DNA of 64,000 nt from positions 4,030,001 to 4,094,000 of the forward strand of contig OX597842.1 in assembly GCA_951406725.2 (NCBI GenBank), in the 5' to 3' direction. Each line of letters begins with the position of its first letter. Position 1 is the first letter of the stretch. The notes beneath the pieces were generated by a model, which did no database searches, was not told the origin of the DNA, and saw only the letters and a program-made list of their open reading frames with translations. A program made the translations under genes and the position numbers. Origin of the DNA: Octopus vulgaris. Lineage: Eukaryota. Shown piece after piece: positions 6,351-50,139 of the stretch.

Positions 6351-8707
6351 CACCTACTGTTATCAGTTCCGTCAACCATATTTCAAAATTATAGAAGTCA
6401 AAAACAAAGGAAAAAAAAACAACAAAAAAACATAGATACATGTCTATCCATCTACCTGTCTGTCTGTCTGTCTGTCTGTCTATGTATTTATCAATCTATT
6501 TACCTATTAATCTAGCTACCTGTCTTTCTTTCTCTCCCTCTCTCTCTACATTTATACACACACACACACACACACATATATATATATATATATATATATA
6601 TATATCCACATACAAATATACATACACAAATATACACACACATATATATATATGTATATATATGTGTATATATACATATATATATATGTGCGTGTATGTA
6701 TATATATATATATATATACATATATATATATATACATATATACATACACACACACACACATATATATATATATATATATATATATATATATAATATATAT
6801 ATATATATATATATATATATATATATATACATATATACATATACATATATATATATATATATATATATATATATATATATATATATGTGTGTGTATAAAT
6901 ACGTCTATCAATCCATCCATCTTTATCCATCTAGATATCTATCTATTTGTCTATCGATATTTCTACCAATATGTGTGTGTGTGTGCGCGTGTGTTTATGT
7001 GAGTGTGTGTATGTGAGTGTGTGTGAGTATGTGAGTGTGTGTATGTATGCGTGTTTGTGTGTGTAAAGCGCACACAAACCCGAGGTACTAAGGACTAAAA
7101 GCAAACGCCATTATTGTTGTAGTATTGTTGTAGTATTGTTGTTGTTGTTGTTGTTGTTGTTGTTGATGGAACCAATAATAATTGTTTTTATTATAGGTGG
7201 CCATCATCACGCTGGCAGAAGTGATCTGTTACCATGGTAACTAAATGATACATATGTTTGACATAGATGTGTGTGTTGGTGTGTATGCATACATCATTAT
7301 ACCTATGTACATATATGTAGATGTGTAATATGTGTGTGTGCGTATATATATGAGTTTGTGTGTGTGTGTGTGTGATAATGCCATTATTTACTCCAAGATT
7401 TCAATTATTTATTTATTTATTTATTTACTTGTCTATTTACAAAATGTAATTTCGAACAAACCAAATACTTGCAAGTCTGTTTACTTATAAACATACAGAC
7501 ACTCACACACACACACAGATACACACACAGATATATGTATGTGTGTATATATATATATATATATATATATATATATATTATTAGTATATATTATTAGTAT
7601 ATATGGTAGCTATATTATCAGGTCGTGCTATTAAGTTAGACACGGCCTGGACCAATCTTTGGTCGAAACATATCTAAGTTTATCTAAGTTTGACGTCCTG
7701 TTTTTGTTATTATTATTATTGTTTTTACGTATTTTTGTATTCTTATTCGTGTAACATTGTCCATTTTCCGTCTTTGTTTTGTATACATTCGAGGCTTTCT
7801 TCCAAGGAATCTAATGCGCTTGGCTTAGATTTTCCTTTGGGGCTGGCCAGATTGGAGCAATCTCAAGATTAATCAGCCGAAATTGCGAGGATGATCCGGT
7901 TCTTGACTGAAGATTGAAGGCTTCGAATGTCCCGTCCGTGTTTTTTGTATCGTCTTCTAAATGTTTTGCGTTCTTGTCCCAGTTTGTATTTTTCTACATA
8001 TAATATATATATATATATAGTGAAAACTTACTAAGAAGTGGATGATAATTAATAAATAAAGTATATGCATATATACATACATATATGTACGTACCTACAT
8101 ATATATGTATGTATACATGCATATATGGGTACAGGACACCAAAAAAAAACGTCGAACACAATGAGAAACGAAAACATAAAAACAAAACCAAGGAAATGGA
8201 CATTATTTTAAACAACGAAAAAACAGAGTAAAAAACATACAACACAAGGAAAATTCCCCTTCTTCAGCCGCCTCTGTTTCGTCTACTCCGTGTTTCGAAG
8301 GTAAAGGTATATATATTTATATATATGTATATATATATATATACAAGGAGACAGACAGACAGACAGACAGAGCGGGGAGTGTGTTATTAGTGAGGGATTA
8401 TCAATCCTGGTAAAATACTTTAGAAGCTCCCTGTTAGTAAACCAGGCTAACAATACTGTTTAGGTTAGTAAAGAACTCCAAGGATTCTTGTGGCGGGGTC
8501 CCAGATTTTAGTTCATCACCATTCTATATTCTAAATCCATGGTTCTGTTCCCGATTATTCTGTTGTTTCTTGTTTTTTTTTCTTAACACAGAATGATATA
8601 CAGACGAAGTACAAATAATGGTCATTACATGCATTTGTTTATTGTAGTAAATAGATAGATAGATAGATAGATAGATAGAGAGAGAGAGAGAGAGAGAGAG
8701 AGAGAGA

Positions 8708-9850
8708 CTTACTTAGCTATGCAGGGCCGAACACATAGGGGACAATACAATGTAGAATTTTTCTTTTCGCAACCGATCAAAAGGCATTGAAAGACGTTTT
8801 GGTGCGTGTACACAAGTAGATAACAAAGATTCGTTTTTAACAATTAAAATTTCCAAAAAGAAAATAACACTGACTAGAGCTATCTGTGGAGAGAAAATCC
8901 TACGAAAAAAAACCTCGGAAAAATGAAAAACAGTATGAGAGCAAAGTGCCCTCTCTCGTTTTGTTTTATAAGTTCATGCTCAAAGTGATTCTGTGATGCG
9001 TACCATCTTTGCTACATTCATCCACCTTTTATTAAACCTTTCATTAGACAAAACTTCCGTCTCTAATCTTACCTTCCTTTTCAAGTAATACTTGAAAAAG
9101 TTGGTGAGAGGTTGGCCAGAGAGGAAATTATTTGTCTCTAAACCTTTCAACTGAGTCCACCATACACATTTTTTCACCATAGCCACCAGTACGATGAAAA
9201 CTGCCTTGCCTTCCCGGTTAAAGGAAGGTGGCGGGGCAATATTTACGATAGACTCGGCTGACAACCGGACTCGTCTCACACGTGACAGTAGCCGTTCAAC
9301 ATCGACACACAGGTCTAAAAAATTTGGACATTGCATGAGCGCGTGCAGAACGGTTTCGTCGGGCAGGTCGGTCCGGTTTTTCTGTAGACCTTATATCGAA
9401 CGGTCAATGATTCCCGATAGCATTGCCAGGCCAGGGATCTCTGGAAGTTGTCCATAGGTCCTTGCCCGAATGTGGTCCTGAAGAGGCAGGTCAGGTATTC
9501 CCCGTCAACGTCCAGAATCTCCCCAAGAACGTCCTCACACCCCCCTCCATTAATCCTCTATAGAACGCGTTTGTGGAATTGAAATCGCACAAGTTTGAAG
9601 CCGAATGGAAGAGCTGATCGAGAGCATGGCGACACTCGCGGTACCATTCGCCCAGCCTCGGTCTCTGCTTGATCCATGATTGCAGTTCGGTCAATGAGAC
9701 GAGCTGCGGGAAAGCGCAACTCACAAACGGCGACCACACCTGTTCACCGTCGTCTATGAAACGCTGGCGATGTCGCGATCTCAGTGTATGTCTGCACGTC
9801 ATCATCAACCACGGCATACCCAGCCCTCCATTTCGCGGCCATTTGCCATT
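8708..9850 (-). mobile_element. 5'-truncated Tx1/L1-clade LINE (ORF2 C-terminus plus 3' UTR)
   Basis: Minus-strand peptides GGLGMPW (~9810-9830) and ETVLHALMQC (zinc-knuckle remnant, ~9325-9357), ORF 8980-9336. The 3' end abuts (AG)n. Confidence 0.75.
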
Positions 9851-9977
9851 CTACCGTGTCACCTGGCGGTGTGGGTAACAGTGCTGGTTTGCTGTTAGTG
9901 TTTTCCACCTCAGTCGAATGATTAAAACAGGTAAAAGATAAAGGTAAGCTTTATATCTAGCGGACATCTTGCTCGAA

Positions 9978-10109
9978 CACCGAATACTACGTTATTAGCC
10001 TTGAGAGACCATCTCATATAGGCGCTTGGTGCATGAATGCACACATATTATACACTAAGTGCCTATATTAGAAGAAGGTTTTTCAAGGCTAATAATGCAG
10101 TTTTCGGTG
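9978..10109. repeat. Imperfect fold-back palindrome
   Basis: caccgaatactacgttattagccttgaga pairs with tttcaaggctaataatgcagttttcggtg; inner arms atataggcgcttggtg and cactaagtgcctatat. Confidence 0.85.
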
Positions 10110-10194
10110 CTCTGACTAGACATTCATGTTTTGTGGGATATAAAGATTAACTTCTCATATTAATACTGCTTCCGTCGCTAATATATAAATAAAT

Positions 10195-10336
10195 TAGAAA
10201 AAAAACACCTTTTATCAATTCAAAATGAAAAATTAAATTACACCATCTAGAAAATTACATATAATCTATAATATGTAATTTTCTAGATGGTGTAATTAAT
10301 TTTTCATTTTGAATTGATACAAGATGATTTTTTCTA
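10195..10336. repeat. Near-perfect ~140 bp palindrome in a TA tract
   Basis: ...caccatctagaaaattacatat and atatgtaattttctagatggtg... form arms of ~65 bp. Confidence 0.92.
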
Positions 10337-49132: not shown

Positions 49133-49362
49133 AAGGCAGCGAGCTGGCAGAAACGTTAGCACGCCGGGCGAAATGCGTAGCCGTATTTCGTTTGCCGTTA
49201 CGTTCTGAGTTCAAATTCCGCCGAGGTCGACTTTGCCTTTCATCCTTTCGGGGTCGATAAATTAAGTACCAGTTACGCACTGGGGTCGATGTAATCGACT
49301 TAATCCCTTTGTCTGTCTTAGTTTGTCCTCTCTGTGTTTAGCCCCTTGTGGGTAGTAAAGAA
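49133..49362 (+). mobile_element. SINE-B full-length with 15-bp TSD
   Basis: atatataattataac at 49118-49132 and 49363-49377. Confidence 0.93.
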
Positions 49363-49371
49363 ATATATAAT

Positions 49372-49851
49372 TATAACGAGGGATTGGCTACAAGCCTCTC
49401 CACGCGCTAGAAAAATAGACGCCAAAAGACGCTAAACGCTATCACTACTTCAAGAGCTCCGAGAGTAAAACATTGGGCTGCAGTCGGGCGAAAGAGAGAT
49501 GATGAATTAAACTCTTGCTTAGCTGTGTACAAGATCCTGTTTCAAGCTTAAAGTAAAAAGTTATTCCATACAGTTCTCATCTACACATACGTATACGAGC
49601 AGCTCGTATGTGTAAGATAATCGTAAATTTATACTATGGAATATCGTTGCTAATGAGAGCAGTGATATCTTATTACTATAAAGCTTGAAACAGGATCTTG
49701 TACACGGTTAACCTAAAGTTTGATTCATTATCTTTCTTTTGCTCAACTACAGCCCAGGGCTTTATTCTCGGAGTTCTTGATGTGGTAATAGCGTCTTCTG
49801 ACGTCTATTTTTCCAGCGCGTGGTGAGGCTTATAGCCAATCCCTTGTTATA
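49372..49851. mobile_element. ~480-bp fold-back element containing a G5A-mutated hammerhead (49645-49707, +)
   Basis: Arms are complementary over ~185 bp, centred on atacgagcagctcgtat. CGUUG CUAAUGA GAGC..GCUU GAAA CAGGAUCUUG UA CACG. Confidence 0.88.
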
Positions 49852-50041
49852 AAAATGCATATAATTATTAAAATACATACATATTATATATATATATATA
49901 TATATATATATATATATATATATATATATATATATATATACATACATACATACACACACATATGTATATGTATATATATATATATAAATACAAAATGGGA
50001 CAAGAACGCAAAACATCCAGAAGACTATACAAAAAACACGG

Positions 50042-50139
50042 CGGGTCATTCGAAGCCTTTAATCTTCAGTCAAGAACCGAGCCGAAATTGCGAGGATGAT
50101 CCGATTCTTGACTGAAGATTAAAGGCTTCGAATGACCCG
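50042..50139. repeat. Perfect 35-bp inverted repeat within the ACAAAATGGGACAA family
   Basis: cgggtcattcgaagcctttaatcttcagtcaagaa and its exact reverse complement. Confidence 0.9.

Follow-up and report, generated by a model that had tools for sequence, protein, structure and literature searches.

A two-box motif, CGAAA-N24-26-CTGAWGA, recurs through a 64,000-nucleotide stretch of the Octopus vulgaris genome (contig OX597842.1, positions 4,030,001-4,094,000; hereafter 'the window'), which is microsatellite-rich animal DNA. We conclude that the two boxes belong to a real, selected RNA structure. This structure is a hammerhead-class variant that resembles the type-SGC permutation, in which the blocks follow the order cleavage site, GAAA and CUGA, and it lacks two of the features by which membership of that type is recognized. 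In the model we favor, the motif forms the central part of a hammerhead whose stem II is completed by an upstream strand, and a four-way junction replaces the bond between A9 and G10.1. We consider it likely that an RNA wired in this way would cleave itself as modelled.

Occurrence and spacing of the motif

The window holds nine strict matches to the motif, compared with 0.03 expected from dinucleotide shuffles (maximum 1 in 300 shuffles). With a tenth site, the CAAAA variant at 31958 (+), all ten sites listed in a first-pass annotation of this DNA are present (Table 1). That annotation also proposed a fixed spacing between the boxes, and genome-wide counts from the 2.8-Gb assembly bear this out. 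Spacers of 24 to 26 nucleotides give 24,210 matches versus 1,197 for a reversed control (about 8,070 versus 400 per spacer length), whereas spacers of 19 to 23 nucleotides give 5,577 versus 1,784 and those of 27 to 33 nucleotides give 6,832 versus 3,215. Because these adjoining ranges are far less enriched, the peak at 24 to 26 nucleotides is real; its tail at 23 nucleotides comes from family D and from the Naiad-type copies described below. Judged by pattern matches, copies occur by the tens of thousands in the O. vulgaris genome.

From sampled loci, 218 pattern matches were screened for a stem III of at least three base pairs and a stem I of at least four. The 98 that passed form 18 clusters at 80% identity, some of which are truncated singletons; the remaining 120 are truncated, decayed or chance matches. 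Families with spacers of 28 nucleotides (L224, L225 and L244) or 31 nucleotides (L230 and L241) were excluded because, by eye, they lack the strand bearing the cleavage site (the S strand). One family, designated A, accounts for 56 of the 98 structured matches, which indicates that copy number is partly a product of amplification and might suggest a single, ordinarily diverged repeat family whose boxes and spacing are unselected. We find this explanation scarcely credible given the 18 clusters and the fact that the stems change sequence yet keep pairing.

Among the 150 matches listed of 292 from an Rfam scan, mostly microsatellite noise, no hammerhead was present at the listed sites, and a general repeat search of the window was dominated by microsatellites.

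Architecture of the predicted ribozyme

An NUH triplet lies 13 to 17 nucleotides 5′ of C11.1. Pairing of the bases 5′ of this triplet with those after GAAA gives stem III; on its 3′ side, the bases pair with the segment just before CUGA, giving stem I. Because the strand carrying the triplet lies upstream and pairs as stems I and III, the block order is site-GAAA-CUGA (type SGC, non-circular). The first-pass annotation had instead read a type II order, with a stem III of two base pairs and a GUA or GUC triplet right after GAAA, and had held that stem I cannot form in cis. These assignments have to be replaced. The site strand is located 5′ of GAAA, and no stem I lies between the boxes. The short stem III with its triplet is missing in families A and C, and the actual stem III makes four or five of five pairs with the upstream NUH strand. 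Stem I pairs with a strand 13 to 17 nucleotides 5′ of CGAAA, with four or five of five base pairs formed in the eight of ten window copies that retain it.

Stem II is formed by the strand before GAAA and an upstream strand that begins with a G 20 to 29 nucleotides before the cut (e.g. GGCUG/CAGCC, GAAGG/CCUUC, GAGCA/UGCUC, GAACG/CGUUC, GACACC/GGUGUC and GCCCAA/UUGGGC). The strand that follows this upstream portion pairs with the strand directly 5′ of stem I′ to give a helix termed P0, while the bases after A9 pair with those directly before a hairpin, H, to give a helix termed Pa. The score for hairpin H peaks at the base before G10.1 (offsets −1/0). From 5′ to 3′, the complete order is Pa, hairpin H, the stem II strand starting at G10.1, P0, GA, the stem III strand, the NUH cut, the stem I strand, a linker of 0 to 6 nucleotides, the stem II strand with C11.1, GAAA, stem III, a bulge and GA, P0, stem I, CUGAWGA and Pa. 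The near-constant spacer of 23 to 26 nucleotides arises because stem III, the GA loop, P0 and stem I fill it.

The loop between P0 and stem III carries GA on both strands in 16 of the 21 representatives used for the covariation tests below. Kink-turns conform to a consensus in which a 3-nucleotide bulge is followed by tandem G-A/A-G pairs between two helices. This register is clean in families A and D and in the Naiad type; families B and E fit it loosely and may have it reversed, and it is absent in family C.

The hammerhead core (CUGAnGA, GAAA, NUH and G10.1-C11.1) is present in the window copies at 7878, 30561, 31397 and 47115. Both boxes are fixed by the search pattern, and NUH and G10.1 were found at fixed upstream offsets in the window copies. 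Unconstrained folding with RNAfold recovered Pa and H in both window copies that were folded, as well as P0 and part of stem III.

Covariation of the helices

Covariation was examined by swapping partners 20,000 times among 21 representatives, hand-picked for intactness and for distinct stems, and stems I, III and upstream II do covary. In these sequences NUH was demanded by the search, C11.1, GAAA and CUGAWGA were demanded by the pattern, and G10.1, which is a G in 20 of the 21, served as the anchor that places the upstream strand. Stems I, III and upstream II, as well as P0 and Pa, all exceed the partner swaps (p≤1e-4), although these p-values overstate independence because the representatives are related and were chosen intact.

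The upstream stem II forms 74 of 84 Watson-Crick pairs (swap mean 27, maximum 49) and covaries through all four Watson-Crick types. Stem I forms 92 of 105 such pairs (swap mean 49.6) and stem III forms 54 of 63 (swap mean 23.3). When hand-set offsets were replaced by a best-of-offset search, upstream stem II gave 94 versus 65 (p = 5e-5) and P0 gave 94 versus 70.7. Anchored at the junction, Pa makes 63 of 105 pairs versus 40.7 (swap maximum 60), but it passes only when anchored at H, since a wide window of 55 nucleotides yields p-values of 0.10 to 0.59. Strand order and helix partners are shown by this covariation. The swap tests also contradict the case, raised in the first-pass annotation, of one ordinarily diverged family with no excess conservation or covariation.

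A different placement of stem II, built from the bases 3′ of CUGAWGA, had been proposed originally and performs no better than swapped partners (p = 0.19-0.88). For the bases after A9, 17 of 84 pairs form versus 20.8 when swapped (p = 0.88), and the best-of-offset search likewise remains at chance level (58 versus 60.8, p = 0.85). These values bear on the reading that the RNA is an ordinary type-SGC hammerhead with a downstream stem II, for which the upstream strand and Pa would constitute the off-state of a switch. Families B and E can indeed form a downstream stem II of four base pairs, two of them G-U, after an insertion of 1 to 2 nucleotides, which recalls the inserted U of HRIMA-1 (PMC10085705). 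However, families A, D and others manage only 0 to 1 base pair in this register, and the downstream pairing is at chance where the upstream pairing covaries. We therefore regard an ordinary type-SGC fold as improbable; the weaker downstream stem II of families B and E could be a relic or a switch.

5′ ends of copies relative to the predicted cut

In the proposed mechanism, the RNA would be cut after NUH, and the cut would fix the 5′ terminus of many templates; it could also release unit-length RNA, possibly circular. In a sample anchored on the boxes, 112 of 167 matches could be assigned to a family reference, and 40 of these 112 begin at +0 to +15 from the predicted cut. Only three start exactly at the cut, and most begin 3 to 15 nucleotides downstream, within the AT-rich linker.

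A second sample, anchored on the tail, comprised 60 loci, namely the first 30 in the list of 224 family A matches and the first 30 in the list of 1,248 family B matches. Here 19 ends fall in 680 nucleotides at risk between +0 and +16, compared with 8 in 2,130 nucleotides between +17 and +55 and 5 in 1,704 nucleotides between −60 and −1. The 17 nucleotides 3′ of the predicted cut are thus about seven times denser in ends than either flank (p of about 5e-7 each way), with the qualification that this zone was set after the box-anchored result and that about five of the tail-anchored loci also occur in that sample. Part of the peak could stem from microhomology between (TA)n and the AT-rich linker. 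We take the peak as indirect evidence of cutting in vivo, which offers support rather than proof. Four contig sets from sequencing runs, aligned to a dimer of family A, yielded no information on starts or ends.

The peak can also be read without cutting. The fold may be correct and serve as a structured 3′-end signal for the reverse transcriptase (RT) and endonuclease of a Penelope-like element (PLE), with the peak produced by RT stalling or by (TA)n microhomology. The displacement of most ends into the linker suits such a signal, PLE hammerheads are sometimes weak in vitro (PMC4209133), and cleavage is so far predicted only. However, an RT proceeding from the 3′ end would by +16 have unwound Pa, stem I, P0 and stem III. 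A stall should therefore leave ends at sites further 3′, yet few lie there (8 in 2,130 nucleotides). In addition, CUGAWGA, GAAA and the A15.1-U16.1 pair persist where every stem has changed. A non-cutting signal, which the first-pass annotation had named as its alternative, is, in our judgment, unlikely.

A model for the catalytic core

As modelled, A9 would run into Pa and hairpin H into G10.1, so that a four-way junction would bring together Pa, H, stem II and the sheared-pair core. Pa and H would stack together, and stem II would stack on the G8/A9-G12/A13 core. The GA/GA loop may kink in the manner of a kink-turn and bring P0 beside stem I, while the 0-6-nucleotide linker would keep stem I alongside stem II, as in type SGC.

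No partner in trans is needed because all helix partners lie in cis. The first-pass annotation had suggested an undescribed hammerhead variant that acts in trans or as a dimer. Its hammerhead derivation stands, with conservation across sequence-divergent families; the trans or dimeric requirement falls away, as the missing helix partners are all found upstream. A type II or partial hammerhead acting in trans or as a dimer would have precedent in minimal PLE hammerheads, which function as dimers (PMC4209133). The window has tandem and inverted copies, and threading of the strands might favor dimers. Nevertheless, with every helix partner in cis and a non-palindromic stem III of 4 to 7 base pairs, we judge such action to be very improbable.

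Several points weigh against the self-cleaving four-way-junction model, including the relatedness of the representatives, the dependence of Pa on its anchor, the scarcity of exact starts at the cut, the choice of the 5′-end zone and the possible contribution of microhomology, as given above. The whole fold is kept in only four of the ten window copies (7878, 30561, 31397 and 47115), the rest being truncated, deleted or mutated. CUGAnGA has been assumed to be inseparable from stem II by more than 1 to 2 nucleotides (PMC10085705), and a helix junction between the two could distort A9-G12. Among 19 3′ ends of Naiads, the PLEs considered next, ten show neither the SGC order nor the CSG order (CUGA, site, GAAA) in the stretch visible in the supplement. 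Finally, no open reading frame (ORF) is linked to families A, B, C and E, for which no search with a published Naiad protein was made.

Related folds at the 3′ ends of Naiad elements

Naiad PLEs (Craig et al., 2021, PMC8557442) and the octopus elements are alike in their preference for (TA)n, their partial tandems and their 5′ inversions. The available portions of that paper report no canonical hammerhead for Naiads and flag eight 'half cores', Naiad_Ovul included. We compared by eye 19 of the 54 consensus 3′ ends in its supplement, using names that assume the file follows the metadata order. The full wiring, with differing stem sequences, is found in five (Obim, Ovul, Amil, Plae and Bfor), and Esco has it in part. 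Three others (Naiad_Hpol, Naiad_Smim and Naiad-3_Nbra) carry clean type-CSG hammerheads with an extra helix around block C; for type CSG, only two sequences are reported in the accessible text of PMC10085705, both metagenomic. By eye, the 3′ end of Naiad_Ovul is matched by one O. vulgaris family (L202, L352-L380), whose fold is also the same.

On balance, we lean toward the view that one Naiad branch, from ctenophores to cephalopods, and its retrozyme-like parasites use the non-circular hammerhead with a four-way junction at A9/G10.1 as their active ribozyme, with other Naiads using type CSG. If this is true, a clade said to be without hammerheads has them in a concealed, rewired form, and inserted copies owe their 5′ end to the cut.

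A conserved G/C-rich 3′ UTR (untranslated region) motif of another type is common to Naiad_CGi and Naiad_Pmar of bivalves and Naiad-1_Skow of a hemichordate; it could be a ribozyme or a signal.

Carrier units and the enzyme that may copy them

Units of family A measure about 800 nucleotides, are rich in pyrimidines and form partial tandems with (TA)n ends. In both family A and family B the full-length unit is non-coding and (TA)n-inserted. Paired motifs lie about 760 to 820 nucleotides apart in L107, L116, L118, L120 and L128, and 836 nucleotides apart at 30561/31397 in the window, with 1.5 to 2 units at most. Head-to-head inversions occur at 19620/19624 and 50079/50080. These carrier shapes, with terminal repeats and inversions, are those described for PLEs; (TA)n insertion, partial tandems and 5′ inversions are all present, and are traits common to other PLE clades besides Naiad.

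Walking upstream from family A revealed a closed non-coding unit of about 800 nucleotides with no ORF. From Naiad-type copies the walk reached only the 3′ UTR, with no PLE ORF upstream in the loci examined, all of which are 5′-truncated. A Pfam search with 12 ORF pieces from the window returned mariner helix-turn-helix (HTH) matches, two weak DUF matches and nothing else. The units are probably copied by a Penelope-like enzyme, for which Naiad is the most likely source, and by analogy the window units most likely depend, as non-autonomous elements, on a Naiad-type enzyme. We read them in this way because architecture and target are shared, and not sequence. The window elements are not classed as Naiads because they lack the ORF with N-terminal GIY-YIG, CxC and RT by which that clade is recognized.

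Two other candidate carriers were rejected. A GIY-YIG fragment at 27761-27982 (−) comes from an abundant family of PLEs whose endonuclease is C-terminal (L052-L070), of which L059 retains an open RT-endonuclease frame of 620 amino acids; the motif is on the coding strand in 0 of 19 loci examined of 20, and the CUGA box is in 0 of 14 3′ ends. In the second case, a (TG)n tract intervenes between the L149 copy and a GIY-YIG remnant 1.2 kb 5′ of it.

In families A, C and E (L104, window 20140-20160 and 47330-47360), the region 300 to 400 nucleotides 5′ of the ribozyme contains a long run of pyrimidines and, after it, a CACGT-type motif. This combination recurs in otherwise unlike families and is possibly a promoter or an intron relic.

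Comparison with known hammerheads and significance

Eckert et al. (2023, PMC10085705) showed cis cleavage in vitro for the type-SGC order, and the available portions of that study describe it only from metatranscriptomes, with none from genomes of known organisms. The octopus RNA is similar to these RNAs (HRIMA-1 and the SGC variant) in its S-G-C order, short linker between stems I and II, pseudoknotted stems and core letters. However, stem II of type SGC directly follows CUGAnGA (insertion of 0 to 1 nucleotide) and the flanks of its block C are joined by a helix, whereas the octopus stem II strand lies upstream and both flanks pair upstream, as P0 and Pa. In addition, A9 of the octopus RNA leads into Pa beside H, and P0 extends stem III via the GA/GA loop.

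Among mobile elements, Naiads differ in carrying an ORF, while the window families have neither an ORF nor a sequence link to the Naiad ORF (PMC8557442). Non-LTR (long terminal repeat) retrozymes and minimal PLE hammerheads (PMC4209133; bioRxiv 10.64898/2026.07.22.740005) are likewise PLE-linked, non-coding tandem units of a few hundred nucleotides with one hammerhead each. As described in the accessible parts of these sources, however, their hammerheads are type I, in circular order, often dimeric and with a short palindromic stem III, in contrast to the S-G-C order in octopus.

A literature search, with most subscription journals outside its coverage, found no description of wiring with an upstream stem II and a four-way junction, and a helix junction at A9 is not among the core insertions listed in the available portions of PMC3088659. 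What is new is a proposed hammerhead with a non-circular order, an upstream stem II and two helices predicted to enter the catalytic core; the SGC order itself was known. If this RNA cuts, it breaks a working rule of hammerhead searches and of the six-permutation scheme, namely that stem II immediately follows CUGAnGA. Non-circular hammerheads would then also pass from being rare RNAs of the environment to occupying animal genomes in tens of thousands of copies, and there would be an answer to why Naiads seemed to be without hammerheads. The tendency of inserted copies to begin just past the predicted cut would then provide a cheap test of the role of PLE ribozymes, and a core opening that tolerates two helices would be a new insertion site for engineered ribozymes.

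Copies in the window

Table 1. Copies of the predicted ribozyme and its relatives in the window. All C11.1 positions are those of strict matches, except 31958 (CAAAA variant); the predicted cut follows N17.
Family and type	Positions	Strand	G10.1	N17	C11.1	A9	Features
A, complete predicted ribozyme	7785..7930	+	7841	7862	7878	7913	Pa 5′ strand from 7785; H 7802-7840; P0 and GA loop after G10.1; AUC; Pa 3′ strand after A9; stems III, I and upstream II each 5/5; unconstrained minimum free energy fold (RNAfold) gives Pa, H, P0 and part of III
A, 5′-truncated unit with (TA)n end	7704..8010	+					85% identity over 309 nucleotides to the full ~800-nucleotide unit of L104
B, copy	8055..8307	−			8297	8261	Starts ~3 nucleotides 3′ of predicted cut; S strand lost
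A, decayed remnant	11369..11517	+					Unlisted in first-pass annotation; G block kept, CUGA box deleted
C, copy	19380..19620	−		19495	19479		Stems I and III intact; GUC; upstream stem II strand deleted relative to 20467 copy
C, partial copy	19624..19704	+		19636	19652		Head-to-head with 19479 (−) copy (PLE-type inversion); stems I and III intact; upstream strands lost
C, copy	20315..20566	+	20424	20451	20467	20503	815 nucleotides after 19652 copy; short H; GUU; single mismatch in each of stems I and II
B, insertion	30328..31589	−	31440, 30604	31412, 30576	31397, 30561		Non-coding 836-nucleotide unit; 428-nucleotide terminal direct repeats 99% identical; complete predicted ribozyme in each repeat; GUC; H 10-11 base pairs
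E, copy	31868..32082	+			31958		Core altered (A at G12, U at G10.1); inverted piece of own tail precedes it; likely inactive
E2, complete copy	47026..47210	−	47157	47131	47115	47078	H 7 base pairs; AUC; Pa 5/5; stem I with one C-C mismatch
A, fold-back	49895..50140	both			50083 (+)		Minus-strand piece (CUGA box 50069) head-to-head with plus-strand piece, which begins 12 nucleotides 3′ of predicted cut

Other hammerhead-like and repeat sequences

Three further hammerhead-like sequences were encountered. At 10748-10783 (+) the window carries GAAA-N25-CTGATGA without C11.1, in which GGCAATGGAAATTGC and then GGAAAC come after CTGATGA; it resembles a type I hammerhead of the usual kind, from a different repeat. 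A weak Rfam HH9 match at 34895-34968 (−), scoring 34.9 bits versus a gathering score of 52, has an altered core and is flanked, by eye, by a direct repeat of about 45 nucleotides. Outside the window, L134, L143, L288 and L289 form a family with a 22-nucleotide spacer in which bases 3′ of CTGATGA pair with those 5′ of the box, giving another hammerhead-like layout.

Among unrelated repeats in the window, mariner transposase remnants lie at 44276-44620 (−) (Pfam HTH_48) and 55218-55538 (−) (by eye), and the segment at 8983-9850 (−) resembles, by eye, the C-terminus of a long interspersed nuclear element (LINE).

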